Positions 8,288 to 54,597 of a stretch of DNA of 64,000 bases are shown one piece after another (the stretch's first letter is position 1; each line of letters begins with the position of its first letter). The notes beneath the pieces are model-generated. The model had not been told where the DNA came from. It did not search any database and was given only the letters and a program-made list of their open reading frames with translations. The position numbers and the translations under genes are program-made. The DNA is from TPA_inf: Saccharomyces (taxonomy: Eukaryota), in the NCBI GenBank assembly GCA_000146045.2, contig BK006941.2, positions 352,001 to 416,000 on the forward strand, in the 5' to 3' direction.

Positions 8288-9859
8288 CTAATCGAAAGTA
8301 ATTTTTTTTGGTTTCTTAGTCAAATCGACGTCCTTAAAGAATGAACCATAAGCGCTATGTTCCTTCTTCTTAGTGTGAGTACCGAACTTTATCAAATCTT
8401 CAGGAACAGGTTGATTGGCACCATTCAAAACGTTAACCAGTCCACCAGCCAAATGCTTTTCTTGTTCAGTGAACAGAGTGTGTGCTGTGCCTGTTTGACC
8501 AGCTCTACCAGTTCTACCGATTCTATGGACATAATCCTCCACAGTCAATGGGAAAGTTAAATTAATAACTGTCTTAACATTTGGTATATCTAAACCTCTT
8601 GCTGCAACGTCGGTGGCCAGTAACAAGTTAGACTTCCCGCTTTTGAACTCATTCAATGCTTGCGTTCTTTGTTGCTGGGACAAATCACCATGGATAGCTG
8701 CGACGTTATACCCGTTATATTTCAAATTCCTTTCAACACGAGCAGCTTCCTTCTTATAAAGAGCAAAAATCAAGACCTTTTCATTCTTTTTTGGACCAGA
8801 GTGGTACTTTTTCAACAGTTCCAATAACTTTCTTTCTTTTCCACGTGGGTCCACCACTTCAACAATCTGTGTAATTCTTTTGTTAGCAGTTAGTTGGTCC
8901 GTGTTACCAATAGATACTTTGATTGGGTTGTTCATGAACGTGGAAGCTAATTCACGGACTTCCTTTGGCCAGGTAGCGGTAAACATTAGAGTTTGTCTTT
9001 TGGACGCATCAGTTTCTCTGATAATATTCTTGATGTCTTCTTCAAAACCTTTTTCCAACATTCTGTCTGCCTCGTCTAATACTAAGTAATTAACTTGAGA
9101 TAAGTCAACAGATCCTTCCTGCAATAGGTCTAATAATCTACCAGGTGTAGCAACCACCACTTGTGACTTTTTTAACTGAATTCTTTGCTCATCCTTTGGA
9201 ACACCACCATAAACACAACAACACTGCATACCAACCTTGTCAGTTAATACAATCAGATTATCATAAATTTGGGAAGCAAGTTCTCTAGTTGGGGAAATGA
9301 CTAGAACCTGTATGCCCCTTTTCTTTTGATCGTTCATTAAATGGCTGATAGCTGGAACACCGAAAGCAAATGTTTTACCAGAACCGGTCTCAGCAACACC
9401 AACAACATCTTTACCAGATAACAAATATGGCCAGGCTACGGCTTGAATAGGCGTTGGTTTTGGAAATTTGGAAATTTCTGCTTGAATGGAAGAGTCTAAA
9501 GAAAGATAATCAAATGATAATAGCGGACGTAGGGCTAGATCCAGAGAATCCTCAACAGCAATTTCATTTTCCTTGAAATATTCGTCAATATCAGATTGTG
9601 GAAGACTGGTTAGTGCTTCACTCTGAACATAAAACTCACTAGCCACTGCAGAAGTAGGTTCAGGTTTCTTTTCAGATTCTTTCTCTGGTACTTCCACTTC
9701 CTTCTCACCCTTCTTCTCCTTCTTATGCTTTTTATGCTTTTTATCCTTCTTTTCCTTCTTGTCTTTCTTATCCTTTTTGTGTTTCTTACTCTTCTTTTTT
9801 TCAATTACCTCCTCATCTACAACCTTTCTCTTCTTGTCTGCGATTTCTTCCTTTGTCAT
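8288..9859 (-). CDS. DBP3: DEAD-box RNA helicase involved in rRNA processing, 523 aa, with a Lys-rich KKxKK N-terminal repeat region.
   Basis: 523-aa ORF. The motifs GSGKT (motif I), DEAD, SAT and [10 protein letters not shown] are present. The N-terminus [26 protein letters not shown] is typical of Dbp3. Confidence 0.93.
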
Positions 9860-9994
9860 TTTAATCCCCTATATATCAAACTGTTAATACTTATGCTTTC
9901 GTTAAAAGGCTGTAAAATGAAGTTAAGCTATATCTCTGAGCTGCTATATTGTTGCCTATCTATTATTAATATTTTTTTTTTATTTGCTTCTTAT

Positions 9995-10017
9995 GCGATG
10001 AGGTGAAAAATTTTTCA
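9995..10017 (-). promoter_or_regulatory. Ribosome-biogenesis promoter motif pair. PAC (GCGATGAG) at 9995-10002, directly followed by RRPE (TGAAAAATTTTT) at 10004-10017. Sits about 140 bp upstream of DBP3.
   Basis: Exact PAC and RRPE consensus strings are seen in the sequence, adjacent to each other. DBP3 is a ribosome-biogenesis regulon gene. Confidence 0.6.
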
Positions 10018-48870: not shown

Positions 48871-49287
48871 TTAGAAGTCATCACCACTTTCAGCAATCAA
48901 AGCCATGATCATTCTGTACAAGTAGAAGAAGAACATCAATAAGTGGAAACCTAACTTTAGGAAACTCTCCCTTTTATGTTTGCCTAAAGTTCTGAATATT
49001 TCGGTAGCATCCAAAAGTTGAACTTTATTGTAGATCTTGTTTAGATTGTAAGCTAGAACTGGTAAGTTCAATAAAAATACAAACCAGTAACCGTTCAGTA
49101 AGAATAGTAATGACAAAGCACCATGCAAGGCGGCTTCAGGGGTAATTAACTTGTTAACTTTAGAACATAATTCAATTGGATTGATATAGTCAGCTTCTAA
49201 ATCAGCGTATAGTATTGTGAAATGCACTTGGCCAAACAAATTGATACAGTTGACAACAACAGCAAGGATAAATAACCAAGCACCCAT
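48871..49287 (-). CDS. ERV14: Cornichon-family COPII cargo receptor, 138 aa.
   Basis: 138-aa [44 protein letters not shown]... with three TM segments. This is an exact match to Erv14 as I remember it. Confidence 0.95.
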
Positions 49288-49526
49288 TTTTCTTTTTATT
49301 CTTAATTTTTTTACTTTACTTTAATTGCAGTTCAAAGGTAAATGTCTTTGTTAAGTAGGCAGTGAGACATAATAATATGAGAAAAATCCAGGTCTCTCCT
49401 TCGTATTAAGGAATACATGATCTAGCTATCACTCTTAAATCTTTCTCCTTCCTTGTTTTTTCTCCGAAATGAAGAAAAAAAATTTTCTTCACGGAACTAA
49501 CGTGAAAAAAAACTTTCAAAAAAATA

Positions 49527-49598
49527 CTCCGATACGGGGAGTCGAACCCCGGTCTCCACGGTGAAAGCGTGATGTGATAGCCGTTACACTATATCGGA
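49527..49598 (-). tRNA. tRNA-Glu (anticodon UUC), 72 nt.
   Basis: The reverse complement reads TCCGATATAGTGTAACGGCTATCACATCACGCTTTCACCGTGGAGACCGGGGTTCGACTCCCCGTATCGGAG. A and B boxes are present, and a T7 terminator lies downstream on the minus strand. Confidence 0.95.
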
Positions 49599-49615
49599 AA
49601 CAAATTAACTGAAAA

Positions 49616-49891
49616 TGTTGTATCTCAAAATGAGATATGTCAGTATGACAATACGTCATCCTAAACGTTCATACAACACATATGAAACAACCTTATATCA
49701 AAACGAACAACATGAGATAAAACCCGGCCTTCCCTAGCTGAACTACCCAAAAGTATAAATGCCTGAACAATTAGTTTAGATCCGAGATTCCGCGCTTCCA
49801 CCACTTAGTATGATTCATATTTTATATAATATATAAGATAAGTAACATTCCGTGAATTAATCTGATAAACTGTTTTGACAACTGGTTACTT
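49616..49891 (+). mobile_element. Sigma element (Ty3 solo LTR), 3'-truncated. Its TGTTGTATCTCAAAATGAGATATG start is 17 bp upstream of the tRNA-Glu 5' end.
   Basis: The sigma terminal sequence is seen, and the spacing from the tRNA is the classical 16-19 bp. The 3' boundary is approximate. Confidence 0.85.
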
Positions 49892-49896
49892 ACCAT

Positions 49897-49957
49897 ATAT
49901 ATTATTGAGAAATGGGTGGATTTTGAGATAAATGTGAGAAATGGGTGAATGTTGAGA
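49897..49957. mobile_element. Two short rearranged delta-end fragments (TGAGAAATGGGTGGATTTTGAGATA / TGAGAAATGGGTGAATGTTGAGAT) between the sigma and the delta.
   Basis: These match the reverse complement of the delta 3' terminus. Confidence 0.55.
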
Positions 49958-50290
49958 TTGTTGGAATAAAAATCCACTATCGTCTATCAACTAATAGTTA
50001 TATTATCAATATATTATCATATACGGTGTTAAGATGATGACATAAGTTATGAGAAGCTGTCATCGATGTTAGAGGAAGCTGAAGTGCAAGGATTGATAAT
50101 GTAATAGGATAATGAAACATATAAAACGGAATGAGGAATAATCGTGATATTAGTATGTAGAAATATAGATTCCATTTTGAGGATTCCTATATCCTCGAGG
50201 AGAACTTCTAGTATATTAGGTATACCTAATATTATAGCCTTTATCAACAATGGAATCCCAACAATTATCTCAAAATTCCCCCAATTCTCA
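49958..50290 (+). mobile_element. Delta element (Ty1/Ty2 solo LTR), 333 bp, TGTTGGAATA...TCTCA.
   Basis: TGTTGG at the 5' end and a delta-like body (GGAAGCTGAAGTGCAAGGATTGATAATGTAATAGGAT..., ...CCTATATCCTCGAGGAGAACTTCTAGTATAT...) are present. Confidence 0.85.
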
Positions 50291-50588
50291 ACATCCGACT
50301 GCCATGCAATGTGCTTTTCTGGATCTCACTCATGATCATAATGGCCCTGTAAAAGGCTCGTACTGTTATTATCATATCTTCAATTACGTATTATTTCGGA
50401 GGCTGTACCTATTAGTGAAATAACGCCTCTAAAAATGAAAAGAAGAAAAAGAATATGAAAGGGGTTCTGAATTGCTAAAATATTTCGTCAAAGCTCAATT
50501 AGTATCAAGATCAAGTCGTAATTCGAATCAGCATAACAACCTCCAAAACCATATAATAACCTTACACAAGACAAGATATCAATTCAAC

Positions 50589-51302
50589 ATGCAAACCCCT
50601 TCAGAAAATACCAACGCCAAGTCGGATTCTCTCGACGAACCCGGTGCATATTTAATCGAGGAAAATGTGGCTCTTCCTAAGGACATATTCCATTCGTACT
50701 TGAGTTATTGGATATATGAAGCAGCTCACTGTACACCGGTCATGCTTTTGTCTCTAGTAATTGGGGTTTTAATCTCAATAATTATTCTTTTTCATGATAA
50801 CGAAAATTGCGTTGGGGTTTCTGTAGGGTTTCTCCTCATATTCTCTGGCATTTTAGTGATAGTTCTAATACTCAGGTTTGGACCACAGATCAGTGATGAA
50901 GATTTCAAATGTAAGCTACTGATGGAAATTATCACACGGAAACCTACGGTAAAGGGGAAAGAATGGAGGACAATTACATACAAGATGAACCAGTATTTAT
51001 TTGATAACGATTTATGGAACACTCCCTACTACTTTTACCGTGATGAAGATTGCCACCGTTATTTTCTAAGTCTTATTAAGGGAAGAACTTTCAAGAAGCA
51101 AAAGGAATCGTCAGCCAGCAATGTTAAAGACGCACAATCAAATGACGAAACCGCTGGCACACCAAACGAAGCCGCTGAGTCTTCTAGTTTTAGTGCCGGA
51201 CCGAACTTTATAAAGCTCCTCACCAAGGCAGCCGAAATCGAACAACAATTTCAAAAGGAATATTGGCGACAAGAGTATCCTGGTGTCGATGAGTTTTTTT
51301 AG
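50589..51302 (+). CDS. PRM8: DUP240-family membrane protein (pheromone-regulated), 237 aa.
   Basis: The ATG at 50589 gives MQTPSENTNAKSD..., 237 aa. It has two TM segments and the DUP240 signature LSYWIYE. Confidence 0.88.
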   Translation: MQTPSENTNAKSDSLDEPGAYLIEENVALPKDIFHSYLSYWIYEAAHCTPVMLLSLVIGVLISIIILFHDNENCVGVSVGFLLIFSGILVIVLILRFGPQISDEDFKCKLLMEIITRKPTVKGKEWRTITYKMNQYLFDNDLWNTPYYFYRDEDCHRYFLSLIKGRTFKKQKESSASNVKDAQSNDETAGTPNEAAESSSFSAGPNFIKLLTKAAEIEQQFQKEYWRQEYPGVDEFF

Positions 51303-51686
51303 ACAGAAGACGGGAGACACTAGCACACAACTTGACAAAGGATCTACTTCTCGATTGACGACACTAGTAGGTGTCAAATTTAGTGTCATTTATGATTTTT
51401 TGTAATAGGATATAAATATATACGGCGCTCCAAATAATGCAGTTGCCCCAAAAACACCACGGAACCTCATCTGTTCTCGTACTTTGTTGTGACAAAGTAG
51501 CTCACTGCCTTATTACCACATTTTCATTATACATCACTTCGCAAAATGCAATATTGAAAATGCCTCTAGAGATGAAAAACAATCGTGAAAAGGGTCCTGC
51601 GTTATTAAAACATTTGATCAGTATGCAATGGCACAGAGACAATCAGGAATACTATAGTCATAGACGATACAAGGTATATATTGGTC

Positions 51687-52391
51687 ATGCAGACCCCTCT
51701 AGAAAGTACCGACGTCAAGTTAGATACACTCAACGAACCTAGTGCACATTTAATTGAGAAAAATGTGGCTCTTCCTAAGGACATATTCCGTTCGTACTTG
51801 AGTTATTGGATCTATGAAATCGCTCGCTATACACCAGTCATGATTTTGTCCCTGGTAATAGGGGTTTTGGTTTTATTAATTATATTTTTTAATGACAACG
51901 AAGCTTGTGTTTTCAATTCTGCATACTACGCTTATCTTTCTCTTGTAGTATTGTTAATAATATTAGGTGATGGTAATCCAAAGCTAGTCAGTCGTCGAAA
52001 TTTTAGGACCGAGCTTTTAGTGGATGTCATCACACGTAAACCGGCAGTAGAAGGGAAAGAATGGAGGATCATCACATACAACATGAACCAATATTTGTTT
52101 AATCATGGGCAATGGCATACTCCGTATTACTTTTACAGCGATGAGGATTGCTACCGTTATTTTCTACGCCTTGTTGAGGGAGTAACCCCCAAGAAGCAAA
52201 CAGCCACGTCAATTGGCAATTCTCCGGTCACCGCTAAGCCTGAAGATGCCATCGAGTCAGCTTCTCCTAGTTCCAGACTGAATTATCGAAACTTTTTGCT
52301 CAAGGCAGCGGAGATCGAACGACAAGCTCAGGAAAATTACTGGCGAAGGCGGCATCCCAATATCGATGCGCTTCTTAAAAAGACGGAATAG
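51687..52391 (+). CDS. MST27: DUP240-family membrane protein, tandem paralogue of PRM8, 234 aa.
   Basis: The track ORF starts at a TTG at 51681. The first ATG at 51687 gives MQTPLESTDVKLDTLNEP..., 234 aa, collinear with Prm8. Confidence 0.88.
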   Translation: MQTPLESTDVKLDTLNEPSAHLIEKNVALPKDIFRSYLSYWIYEIARYTPVMILSLVIGVLVLLIIFFNDNEACVFNSAYYAYLSLVVLLIILGDGNPKLVSRRNFRTELLVDVITRKPAVEGKEWRIITYNMNQYLFNHGQWHTPYYFYSDEDCYRYFLRLVEGVTPKKQTATSIGNSPVTAKPEDAIESASPSSRLNYRNFLLKAAEIERQAQENYWRRRHPNIDALLKKTE

Positions 52392-52495
52392 CTTAGAGAC
52401 ACTGCCATACGTAAAGCGAACATAAACTAGAGTATGATATATAATCAGCACTAACTGGCCCGAAAACGGCCGAAGAAGCCTCGAAAAGTCGATTC

Positions 52496-52797
52496 GTGTT
52501 GGACCCATTTGCTGAACGAAGTGTTCATTGCCTACCTATTATGGTAGTAGTCGTGATAATCGTGTGGTTGGTTTTGTCAACGGTGCATTTGCATTTTCAT
52601 GACAATAAGCCTTGCGTTTTCGTTCTCGGGATATTACTTTCCCCCCACTTCTTTCGCCTCGATAGCTCCTATAAGCATTCTCAGGGCGTATGTCGGTGAT
52701 CGAGATTTCCAAGCAAGCTTTTAGTGGAAATCATCGCGCGCAAGCCAGCGGTAAAGGGAAAAGAACGGAGGACGATTACATACAAGATGAACGAATA
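52496..52797 (+). pseudogene. Decayed third DUP240 copy. It survives as two frame-shifted fragments, one homologous to the TM region and one to the RKPAVKGKEWRTITYKMN segment of PRM8/MST27.
   Basis: Fragment 1 (52496-52699) encodes HCLPIMVVVVIIVWLVLSTVHLHFHDNKPCVFVLGILLS, compared with Prm8 HCTPVMLLSLVIGVLISIIILFHDNENCVGVSVGFLLIFSGIL. Fragment 2 (about 52717-52797) encodes LLVEIIARKPAVKGKERRTITYKMNE*. Stops and frameshifts separate them. Confidence 0.6.
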
Positions 52798-53004
52798 AAT
52801 AAATTAATAATAAATAATAATAGAAAGTACAGTAGCATTAAATATTATTAAGTTTAATGATTAAAAATTGGTTAATTGTCAAGAAAATCTAAGGTATTAA
52901 TAAATAAATAATACTATGACAACTTGCAGCGAAACGATCAGCCCCAATGAAAATTAATCAGAATTGAATTTGAGCGTATCTATTTGATAACGGTTTACGT
53001 AACT

Positions 53005-53207
53005 GTTGGAATAAAAATCAACTATCATCTACTAACTAGTGTTTACGTTACTAGTATATAATCATATACGGTGTTAGAAGATGACGGCAAATGATGAGAA
53101 ATAGTCATCGTTTTCAATGGAAGCTGAAATACAAGGATTGATAATTGTTGGAATAAAAATCAACTATCATCTACTAACTAGTATTTACGTTACTAATATA
53201 TTATCAT
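53005..53207 (+). mobile_element. Two truncated delta (Ty1/Ty2 LTR) 5' fragments in tandem (53005-53145 and 53146-53207), both starting TGTTGGAATAAAAATCAACTATCATCTACTAACTAG.
   Basis: Delta 5'-end sequence is seen twice in direct orientation. Confidence 0.75.
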
Positions 53208-53453
53208 CAAAATTCACCCACTCTTCAGTTACTTATCTTATATATTATATAAAATATGAATCATACTAAGTGGTGGAAGCGCGGAATCTCGGATCTAAAC
53301 TAATTGTTCAGGCATTTATACTTTTGGGTAGTTCAGCTAGGGAAGGCCGGGTTTTATCTCATGTTGTTCGTTTTGTTATAAGGTTGTTTCATATGTGTTT
53401 TATGAACGGTTGAAGTATTGTCATACTGACGCTTCTGATTTTGAGATTCAACA
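53208..53453 (-). mobile_element. Sigma element (Ty3 solo LTR), truncated, inverted relative to the 49.6-kb copy. Its terminus lies 16 bp upstream of tRNA-Arg.
   Basis: It is the reverse complement of the left sigma core (…GGTGGAAGCGCGGAATCTCGGATCTAAACTAATTGTTCAGGCATTTATACTTTTGGGTAGTTCAGCTAGGGAAGGCCGGGTTTTATCTCATG…). Confidence 0.8.
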
Positions 53454-53469
53454 CTTCCAACAAACAGTA

Positions 53470-53541
53470 GCTCGCGTGGCGTAATGGCAACGCGTCTGAC
53501 TTCTAATCAGAAGATTATGGGTTCGACCCCCATCGTGAGTG
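53470..53541 (+). tRNA. tRNA-Arg (anticodon UCU), 72 nt.
   Basis: GCTCGCGTGGCGTAATGGCAACGCGTCTGACTTCTAATCAGAAGATTATGGGTTCGACCCCCATCGTGAGTG, followed by a T7 terminator. Confidence 0.95.
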
Positions 53542-53775
53542 CTTTTTTTGAATAAGCTTGAAATTGGTAAGACATGCCAGCGTACCATAGTATTTCGCTT
53601 TACTGAGGTAACGACAGCAGATATCAAAAATTCATTTTTTCTTACCCAGAACAGAGCTCTTCTTCCACTAACGCTTTTAGTTAGGAATGTATACATTAAC
53701 AGTCTATTTTTTTTTGAAACCTTTCTTCACTGAGATACAACAGATAGATACCAACCAGTAAGATTTAAGTAACTC

Positions 53776-54597
53776 ATGGCTGCGCAGAATGCCTTTGAAC
53801 AAAAAAAGAGGGCAATTTTGAATGAGATAGACTCAACCCAACCAGATTTGTCACCAAAAGGCACTATAGATGAACTATGCCTTCCAATAATTGATCTTAT
53901 CAACGCAAGCGCTGATATGGTGACAACTTCATCGTGTTCCGGTAGAGTCAGTGTATTCTTGGAAGGTACTAAGTCATATAACGGGGAGGTCAAGATAGGT
54001 GGTAAGGGACAAGGCGGTAAATGGCTTTACGTCACTCATGATCGTGAGAAAGTTATTGGCTGGTTAGATGAGTTGAAATCAAAAAGTGAGTTTTCTTTTG
54101 AACTATCTGGCAAGGAGATACCAACAGAGAAAGTAACGGGGAGTATCAGATATATACTTTATAAGTATGAGCCTTTCATATTGCACGTTAAATGCAGAGA
54201 CTTTCAAGCAGCATCCAAGTTATACAACACAGCCATGTCTTGTGGTTTCAGAGAAAGTGGGATTGGTTCGAACAATCTGGTCGCAATCAGAATAAATATC
54301 AAGCTGGACGTACCGCTCGGTTATTTAGATGAGACTTCAGGCACTTTGAAATTTTTTGTAACTCCAGAATACGTAAGCGTTCTGGATTCTTTATCGTTAA
54401 GCAAATTCGATGAGAATACCAGGAAAATGCAAGCACTATATGATAGAATTGAAAAAGAACTCATAAATTGTGCGCCGGATGTAAATTCTAAGGTCAATAT
54501 AACGCCAATCGAAACAAAGGAAGAGAGGAGAGAACGAAAGAAAAGAGAAGGTATGGAGAGACAACGTCAACTTAAGAGCCCACAAAATGTGCTATAA
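53776..54597 (+). CDS. TYW3: tRNA wybutosine synthesis methyltransferase, 273 aa.
   Basis: 273-aa ORF MAAQNAFEQKKRAILNEIDSTQPDLSPKGTIDELCLPIIDLINA...TTSSCSGRV (a TYW3-family motif). Confidence 0.9.
   Translation: MAAQNAFEQKKRAILNEIDSTQPDLSPKGTIDELCLPIIDLINASADMVTTSSCSGRVSVFLEGTKSYNGEVKIGGKGQGGKWLYVTHDREKVIGWLDELKSKSEFSFELSGKEIPTEKVTGSIRYILYKYEPFILHVKCRDFQAASKLYNTAMSCGFRESGIGSNNLVAIRINIKLDVPLGYLDETSGTLKFFVTPEYVSVLDSLSLSKFDENTRKMQALYDRIEKELINCAPDVNSKVNITPIETKEERRERKKREGMERQRQLKSPQNVL

Follow-up and report, generated by a model that had tools for sequence, protein, structure and literature searches.

We analysed a 64-kb stretch of DNA of Saccharomyces cerevisiae chromosome VII (the window) and concentrated on the interval between ERV14 and TYW3, which was placed from the open reading frames (ORFs) of the window. 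This interval is the published chromosome VII locus of the DUP240 gene family (PMC9974470). It contains two tRNA genes, tRNA-Glu(UUC) and tRNA-Arg(UCU), which are transcribed divergently, so that both upstream regions face the DUP block between them. Each tRNA gene is preceded by a sigma element, the solo long terminal repeat (LTR) of Ty3. Delta elements, the LTRs of Ty1, lie further in, and between these are PRM8, MST27 and a decayed third DUP240 copy (Table 1). We interpret the interval as a long-standing landing pad for retrotransposons that target RNA polymerase III (Pol III) genes. This pad encloses a DUP240 array that has been rearranged by three recombination routes, and an inverted pair of sigmas arose in it late; we put the probability of this interpretation at roughly 0.85. 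It draws on direct observations of the anatomy of the locus, of its polymorphism, of three recombinant junctions and of outgroups in which the array is absent.

Table 1. Features of the ERV14-TYW3 interval (positions in the window; NUMT, nuclear insert of mitochondrial DNA)
Feature	Position	Strand	Support	Remark
tRNA-Glu(UUC)	49526-49599	-	ARAGORN; Rfam RF00005, 61.9 bits	reads toward ERV14
Left Ty3 sigma solo LTR, nt 1-276 of ~340	49616-49891 (276 nt)	+	sequence; inverted-repeat pairing	
Old inverted sigma remnant, 14-21 nt (nt ~230->210)	49885-49905	-	junction comparison	
Two tandem shards (29, 24 nt) of an inverted Ty1 delta 3' end	49906-49934, 49935-49958	-	repeat family D8; inverted pair I3	
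Left delta, full-length Ty1 solo LTR (332 nt)	49959-50290	+	sequence; repeat search	left border of DUP block
PRM8 upstream region, part of the DUP repeat unit	50291-50588	+	partial copies before internal units in L001, L008	
PRM8 (YGL053W), DUP240 family, 237 aa	50589-51302	+	ORF; Pfam DUP PF00674, E = 2.9e-36	
MST27 (YGL051W), DUP240 family, 234 aa	51687-52391	+	ORF; Pfam DUP, E = 3.1e-31	
Decayed third DUP240 copy, 5' part, frameshifted	52489-52795	+	blastn, ~64% to PRM8 and MST27; repeat families D3, D6	
AT-rich NUMT (~180 nt)	52796-52975	.	matches to 17%-GC contigs	interrupts the third DUP240 copy
Third DUP240 copy, final 28 nt	52976-53003	+	repeat family D7, 86% to PRM8 50993-51020	cut mid-ORF by right delta
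Right delta 5' fragment, nt 1-141	53004-53145	+	blastn; repeat families	most other haplotypes have all 334 nt
Second delta fragment, nt 1-~62 fused to 3'-terminal 21 nt	53146-53227	+	repeat families D4, D12; sequence	
Right Ty3 sigma solo LTR, nt ~230->1	53228-53453 (226 nt)	-	sequence; repeat comparison	
tRNA-Arg(UCU)	53470-53542	+	ARAGORN; Rfam, 67.5 bits	reads toward TYW3
ERV14-like ORF	48871-49287	-		neighbour
TYW3-like ORF	53776-54597	+		neighbour
OLE1-like and TIF4632-like ORFs				neighbours

Because Ty3 inserts at the Pol III start site, its sigma comes to lie 16 nt upstream of the tRNA gene. Ty1 inserts within the first few hundred bp of the upstream region, so that its deltas lie further in. 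On both sides of the DUP block, the sigma was found 16 nt from the 5' end of its tRNA gene, within the ~16-17 nt expected of such elements. The left sigma starts with TGTTGTATCTC at 49616 (spacer 49600-49615), and the right one terminates with ...GAGATTCAACA at 53453 (spacer 53454-53469). An earlier note, made from the letters of the window, had described outward-facing tRNA genes with sigmas at 16-17 bp, and ARAGORN, Rfam and the sequence all agree with that description. Its statement that the two sigmas are inverted copies of each other also holds (98% complementary over 184 nt; 94.4% identity over 231 aligned nt; blastn E = 2e-83; longest perfect run 148 nt), with the correction that both copies are truncated. 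Both have the 5' terminus TGTTGTATCTC and have lost the 3' end of the expected TGTTG...CAACA form of ~340 nt. Their inner ends were deleted or replaced by delta sequence, and no target-site duplication survives. The window copies are 91-100% identical to sigma copies of other strains, including one 335-nt full copy, and a full-length orthologue of the right sigma is present in L002, L013 and others (L-numbers denote the compared assemblies or contigs). We take these LTRs to be sigma partly on the basis of general features of Ty3 sequence. Among the S. cerevisiae loci that include it, the tRNA-Glu gene itself shows 99-100% identity, and its position is kept in three sister species.

The deltas inside the sigmas have the same orientation, as the earlier note had it, with coordinates shifted by 1-2 nt. 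The left delta runs from TGTTGGAATA to AATTCTCA (TGTTGG...TCTCA), has the TG...CA ends and the ~332-338 nt expected of a complete element, and is 95-100% identical in the other array-bearing haplotypes resolved there. On the right, the fragment at 53004-53145 matches the left delta at 79% over 143 nt (E = 6.5e-28) and the right delta of L002 and L013 at 99%, and the second fragment matches the left delta at 84% over 64 nt (E = 7e-13). The longest identical run between the left and right deltas is 16 nt. The scrambled delta-end shards noticed before proved to be two tandem inverted delta 3' ends next to the remnant of an old sigma; the same 24-nt shard opens a complete inverted delta in L014, L016, L018 and L037. 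No 5-bp target-site duplication flanks the left delta (GAGAT at 49954-49958, ACATC at 50291-50295) or the right delta in L002 (GTAAC at 8901-8905, CCAGA at 9240-9244). Neither delta is therefore a simple pop-out product of one insertion. The outer flanks of these bordering deltas are LTR debris, and the inner flanks are sequence of the DUP block.

Between the deltas, PRM8, MST27 and a decayed third DUP240 copy were found as claimed, the two genes from Pfam DUP matches that exceed the curated cut-off and the relic from ~64% identity. MST27 lies 1098 nt downstream in register with PRM8 (direct repeats D1/D2, 75-79% identity) and the decayed copy 704-707 nt beyond that, which makes a head-to-tail array with a terminal relic. 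This relic is kept in nearly all array-bearing haplotypes. The exact PRM8 protein was found in 15 contigs.

We compared the window with 31 other S. cerevisiae assemblies (28, plus the diverged-TYW3 haplotype of L021-23) and with three sister species. Assemblies were collected via the TYW3, ERV14, OLE1, PRM8 and MST27 proteins and via another S. cerevisiae TYW3 allele; the diverged allele retrieved L021-23. Each ERV14-TYW3 interval was extracted and then tiled with the window features. The check across strains that the earlier note had proposed was thereby run, and the interval is not invariant in the 31 assemblies but highly polymorphic, ranging from 985 nt to 12,388 nt (0.99-12.4 kb). The S288C-type class (the window, L004/L033, L028-32 and L034-35) has a new plus-strand sigma at tRNA-Glu, PRM8, MST27 and a truncated right delta. 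One-gene haplotypes have either a different 241-aa DUP gene with the relic (L002, L007, L012 and L013; L007 without relic) or a PRM8::MST27 chimera (L009). Expanded arrays are present in L001 (12.4 kb, ~8 units) and L008 (~7 units), with LTRs at the borders only. The array-less haplotypes are of several kinds. L006 has a single chimeric delta, and L020 one chimeric sigma between the tRNA genes. In L014, L018 and L037 (with variants in L016 and L027), an inverted delta of full length is present and, after it, right-delta nt 86-334; this last structure is the commonest array-less one in the sample. In L005, two inverted deltas ~5.6 kb apart replace the array and are read as a full Ty. Same-orientation delta pairs ~5-6 kb apart are found in L005, L021 and L025 of S. 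mikatae, and are read from their spacing as putative full Ty elements. Finally, L010 (GCA_903819155.2; locus 9236-10000) has a deletion that begins within the NUMT and takes in the right delta, the sigma and the tRNA-Arg(UCU) gene, which is therefore absent here; a truncated DUP gene is left fused to the insert.

Two of the array-less haplotypes carry a single chimeric LTR with one switch point, as expected of LTR-mediated deletion. Along the delta of L006, 13 consecutive left-type diagnostic sites are followed by 68 consecutive right-type ones, and the switch falls between delta nt 57 and 74, within the shared ATCATATACGGTGTTA. The two parents of this delta share only 79% identity and lie on either side of the array in other strains, from which we concluded that L006 lost the whole array by delta-by-delta deletion. 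In L020, the order is tRNA-Glu, 16 nt, one sigma, 17 nt and tRNA-Arg. The diagnostic pattern of this sigma is OOOO RRRRR(O)RR (O, old left sigma; R, right sigma), and its 5-bp flanks are mismatched, with no target-site duplication. L020 is the product of a sigma-by-sigma deletion between direct repeats. That its sigma is instead the ancestral element was considered and rejected. In other haplotypes the old left sigma (nt 340->210) overlaps the full-length right sigma by 131 nt, so the two are not halves of a single element, and the switch of type and the mismatched flanks of the L020 sigma also speak against it. In the delta crossover, the identical patch was 16 nt long, and the sigma crossover lies between diagnostic sites ~35 nt apart. 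Recombination usually needs a few hundred bp to be efficient, and these two crossovers are far below that.

The third junction involves no LTR. In L009, the gene follows PRM8 as far as window-equivalent 50661 and MST27 from 50692 on. The switch, at 50662-50691, is a stretch of 30 nt that is the longest identical run between PRM8 and MST27. L009 arose by an unequal crossover that removed one 1098-nt unit. Arrays of 7-8 units (L001, L008) have no internal LTRs either. Copy-number change inside the array proceeds without LTRs, via exchange among DUP units.

These junctions bear on the suggestion of the earlier note that the LTRs boxing in the block may explain the copy-number dynamism of DUP240. 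If they were its main driver, the inverted sigmas would flip the block and the direct deltas would delete or duplicate it. The repeats are indeed present and explain loss of the whole array in L006 and L020, but such LTR events are all-or-none, whereas the graded change is explained by DUP-by-DUP exchange, as in L009, and by the LTR-free expanded arrays. Of the delta claim, the deletion half stands with the L006 chimera; the duplication half does not, since no delta-mediated duplication product occurs among the compared assemblies. With respect to the 80% identity that had been set as the floor for homologous recombination, the sigmas are above it (94.4-98%), and their identical run of 148-181 nt would in principle be enough. 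The window deltas (79% and 84%), on the other hand, are at or below the line, with a perfect match of at most 16 nt.

The expected sigma-by-sigma inversion was not found: in all 19 DUP-bearing intervals of this limited and non-random sample, each PRM8/MST27 tblastn match is on the + strand relative to TYW3. The window and all 16 other DUP-bearing assemblies likewise have no DUP homologue in the opposite orientation. The arrangement ERV14(-) PRM8(+) MST27(+) TYW3(+) is shared by all 15 contigs that carry the exact PRM8 protein and by the 12 long ones in which the exact MST27 protein occurs. The inverted pair of sigmas is itself confined to the S288C-type class. Haplotypes elsewhere that keep a sigma at each tRNA gene have them as direct repeats, of which the natural recombination product is a deletion, as in L020. 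A possible gene-conversion tract between the inverted sigmas, described below, speaks for some interaction of the copies. Taken as a whole, the idea that the boxing LTRs are the main driver of the copy-number dynamism appears improbable to us; the earlier mechanism is half right and partly supported.

The comparison at the tRNA-Glu junction points to a late origin of the inverted pair. Besides the window, L028-32 and L034-35 have the left plus-strand sigma; L004/L033 are N-masked at the junction, and no other S. cerevisiae assembly resolved there has it. Those other assemblies have instead an old degenerate sigma (nt 340->210) in the opposite orientation, which keeps the same 16-nt spacing to tRNA-Glu and ends with ...GGAATGTTACTTACCATATATATTAT immediately before the delta shards, so that the junction reads ...GGAATGTTACTTACCATATATATTAT/TGAGA. 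The window junction reads ...CAACTGGTTACTT/ACCATATATATTAT/TGAGA. Here the new sigma (nt 1->276) runs into the final 21 nt of the old one through a 7-nt microhomology, GTTACTT (49885-49891), and the old sigma's private ACC variant is retained. We also tried the possibility that the left sigma is an inverted copy moved from the right side and rejected it, because its first 45 nt are canonical sigma sequence without counterpart in the right sigma, including a 5-nt indel. On the right side, most strains have a right delta of full length (334 nt) followed by 30 nt of inverted delta, 68 nt of an old sigma and, next to tRNA-Arg, a complete sigma. The 68-nt piece is itself 17 nt from tRNA-Arg in L014 and L018, which means that the tRNA-Arg site was also hit twice.

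We infer the following order of events for the S288C-type haplotype. A second Ty3 LTR would have inserted at tRNA-Glu opposite to the older sigma, which would have made a near-palindrome, and this would then have collapsed through a deletion at the 7-nt microhomology. The inverted sigmas may since have exchanged sequence by gene conversion. Apart from the window, the S288C-type assemblies have left and right sigmas that match at 181 of 181 positions (sigma nt 51-231); the window has two private mismatches in this stretch, and the orthologous right sigmas of other haplotypes differ from it at 3-6 sites. The 45 nt nearest the tRNA genes, in comparison, are only ~83% alike between the two copies. 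This mosaic of identity suggests gene conversion between the inverted sigmas, and the copies have therefore probably interacted.

A side observation concerns the window itself, which differs privately at seven places (49674, 49698, 52474, 52522, 52935-52936 and 53086) from L028, L029, L030 and L034, four S288C-type assemblies that are mutually identical; the two private sigma mismatches are among these differences. This suggests that the window is an older version of the reference or one with errors, or else that it belongs to a private sub-lineage.

Next, we considered the outgroups. Homologues of TYW3 led to four outgroup haplotypes: that of L021-23 (~12% diverged), and those of S. mikatae (L025), S. 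kudriavzevii (L043) and S. eubayanus (L044). The L021-23 haplotype, present in three S. cerevisiae assemblies, was probably introgressed from S. paradoxus. In all four, ERV14 and TYW3 still enclose the divergent tRNA-Glu/tRNA-Arg pair. LTR or Ty sequence separates the tRNA genes wherever it is recognisable, and no DUP homologue was found at the locus in any of them (tblastn E <= 1). The landing pad is therefore old, and at this locus only S. cerevisiae has the array. In S. kudriavzevii (L043, 7281-9257), Ty3-like gag and reverse transcriptase/RNase H ORFs lie between the same tRNA pair, which makes the site an active Ty3 target in another species too.

An array that is absent from all four outgroup haplotypes, together with the tRNA pair and LTRs that are present in them, is also what would be expected if LTRs and DUP genes were merely co-located, with exchange among DUP units alone at work and the array-less strains never having had an array. 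The documented DUP-by-DUP exchange and the L014-type structure, which has no recombinant LTR junction, fit this as well. However, the chimeric delta of L006, whose 79%-identical parents flank the array elsewhere, cannot be ancestral, and the chimeric sigma of L020 has mismatched flanks. Further, a putative full Ty replaces the array between LTR remnants in L005, and the deletion of L010 runs from the array through tRNA-Arg. We regard pure co-location as highly improbable.

The array of chromosome VII is missing in 67 of 93 strains, identical to that of S288C in three and variable (up to six genes) in 23 (10.1101/2023.09.07.545205). A related alternative is that most array-less haplotypes, i.e. 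the L014 type, reflect primary absence, the array being a recent gain of some lineages and LTR-mediated loss a minor contributor to the 67 absences. This would agree with the array-less state of every outgroup, with the frequency of the L014 type among the array-less structures here (L014, L018, L037 and the variants L016 and L027), and with bordering deltas that have no target-site duplications, as expected for ectopic arrival. But the L014 type has no right-delta nt 1-85, which array-bearing haplotypes have, and these in turn have no more than a minor part of the L014-type inverted delta. Both types are thus derived, and neither is the direct ancestor of the other. Moreover, protein identity among the paralogues of the array is only 36-60%, and the array is therefore old. 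Primary absence is in our view a possible explanation of most array-less haplotypes, if a somewhat unlikely one.

How the array reached the landing pad can be proposed tentatively. The DUP block may be a delta-bracketed cassette that was placed by LTR-mediated ectopic recombination in S. cerevisiae and is perhaps still mobile in that way. The deltas without target-site duplications and the relic cut mid-ORF would fit arrival of the block by such delta-mediated ectopic recombination. Also consistent with a cassette are the four array-less outgroups and L046, which joins the same left delta and array to a tRNA-Leu/tRNA-Ser region. The same proposal includes, in the S288C type, a second Ty3 hit at tRNA-Glu that inverted the direct sigma pair, followed by homogenisation over 181 nt. 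If true, this would shift the expected outcome of rearrangement at the locus from deletion to inversion. We consider the combined proposal unlikely.

L046 is a metagenome contig (ERZ794947 NODE-219; reverse-complement coordinates 1-2055) with an expanded DUP array that has the same left delta and a different left region. This region comprises a fragment of a sigma, a gene resembling tRNA-Leu(CAA), 1.2 kb of unique sequence and, ~190 nt before the delta, tRNA-Ser(AGA). The tRNA-Glu gene and ERV14 are absent from L046, and no assembly has its left region within 10 kb of the locus. It may represent a delta-bounded translocation, a second locus, or an assembly chimera through the delta. The 5' ends of DFP12/DFP13, from the chromosome XII DUP240 locus of PW5 (PMC9974470), were found neither in L046 nor in the other loci compared.

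Taking these data together, we return to the old landing pad and its three routes. Recurrent insertion, LTR-LTR pop-out and small deletions would have left the nested solo LTRs and fragments upstream of both tRNA genes. In S. cerevisiae only, a DUP240 array lies in the middle of the pad, its borders falling exactly on the 3' end of one delta (left) and the 5' end of another (right). By the first route, unequal crossover or gene conversion among DUP units changes the copy number inside the array; by the second, recombination between the same-orientation deltas removes the whole array; and by the third, recombination between directly repeated sigmas removes everything between the tRNA genes. A natural recombinant demonstrates each route. 

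Several points weigh against this interpretation. The target preferences of Ty1 and Ty3 were taken from established knowledge. The sample is non-random, with the longest contigs and distinct gene neighbourhoods favoured, so that haplotype frequencies are not estimable from it. N gaps lie within the interval of L003, L004/L033, L007, L015, L017, L019 and L036, and among these the gapped L003, L015, L017, L019 and L036 were left out of the structural interpretation. The L014 type has no clean LTR-by-LTR junction and could have come from a non-homologous deletion or from a lineage that never had the array. The new Ty3 insertion and the collapse of the palindrome are read from one junction, which has lost by deletion the target-site duplication needed to prove a separate insertion. 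The suggested gene conversion is read from just two sites unique to the right sigma of the S288C type, and both presumably match the state of the sigma consensus.

Among the assemblies with gaps, L015 (GCA_000190255.1) has two tRNA-Arg(UCU) copies, each with its own sigma/delta cluster. These may be a real duplication or two merged haplotypes.

The locus resembles several known systems. Position-specific integration of Ty3 at Pol III start sites has reportedly been worked out by the Sandmeyer laboratory. The likeness to such sigma insertions lies in the 16-nt spacing, the surviving 5' terminus of the TGTTG...CAACA form and the repeated hits at tRNA-Glu (an old and a new sigma) and at tRNA-Arg (the 68-nt old fragment and the full sigma of other strains). 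The difference is that the window copies are 276 and 226 of ~340 nt, without target-site duplications, and that the left one is fused to an older inverted remnant. As in Ty1/Ty2 delta clusters, the deltas of the window are 240-690 nt upstream of two tRNA genes. In yeast, ectopic recombination between LTRs yields deletions, inversions and translocations; the general principle is cited in PMC9974470. The L006 and L020 chimeras are deletion products of this kind, although the deltas of this locus are only 79% identical and no inversion product was seen in the intervals compared.

Polymorphism of the DUP240 arrays and their Ty/tRNA neighbourhood have already been published, and the locus is known in outline. 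DUP240 genes are situated near transposons and tRNA genes (PMC9974470, citing Leh-Louis et al. 2004), relics at the ends of DUP240 arrays have been described (PMC2822764), PRM8 is present in 4 of 16 strains (PMC9974470 Dataset S2a), and one member of the family, KTD1, is a killer-toxin defence factor (PMC9974470). As in this literature, the chromosome VII array ranges from no to many genes; it is reported absent from most strains (10.1101/2023.09.07.545205; PMC9974470), and recombinant paralogues also occur (PMC9974470). The present result refines this known picture and does not open a new one. It provides a compact, naturally replicated case of tRNA-targeted retrotransposons shaping a fast-evolving gene family, in which the comparison of strains separates three recombination routes on one 4-kb interval, and in which identical patches of 16-30 nt sufficed for the delta and DUP exchanges.

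Two minor features of the DUP block remain to be described. The first is the mitochondrial insert within the decayed third copy. It matches the mitochondrial-type, 17%-GC contigs L047 and L048 at 98.8% over 83 nt and 93.5% over 62 nt. Its allele in L046 runs on into a COX1-like frame (Pfam COX1, E = 5e-4), a match below the curated cut-off because the peptide has only 23 aa. The alleles of L010 and L032/L035 have an additional GC cluster of ~27-30 nt, which the window does not have. As the insert is common to nearly all array-bearing haplotypes, it is old. Ricchetti et al. 1999 reportedly described the capture of mitochondrial DNA at nuclear double-strand breaks in yeast. Like other yeast NUMTs, this one is a short AT-rich fragment, with a GC cluster and a COX1 piece, inside a nuclear pseudogene by LTRs and tRNA genes; it differs in being an old side feature of nearly all array-bearing haplotypes. 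The second is a 101-aa ORF at 51437-51742, which covers the stretch between PRM8 and MST27, overlaps the start of MST27 and is probably the annotated dubious ORF between these two genes.

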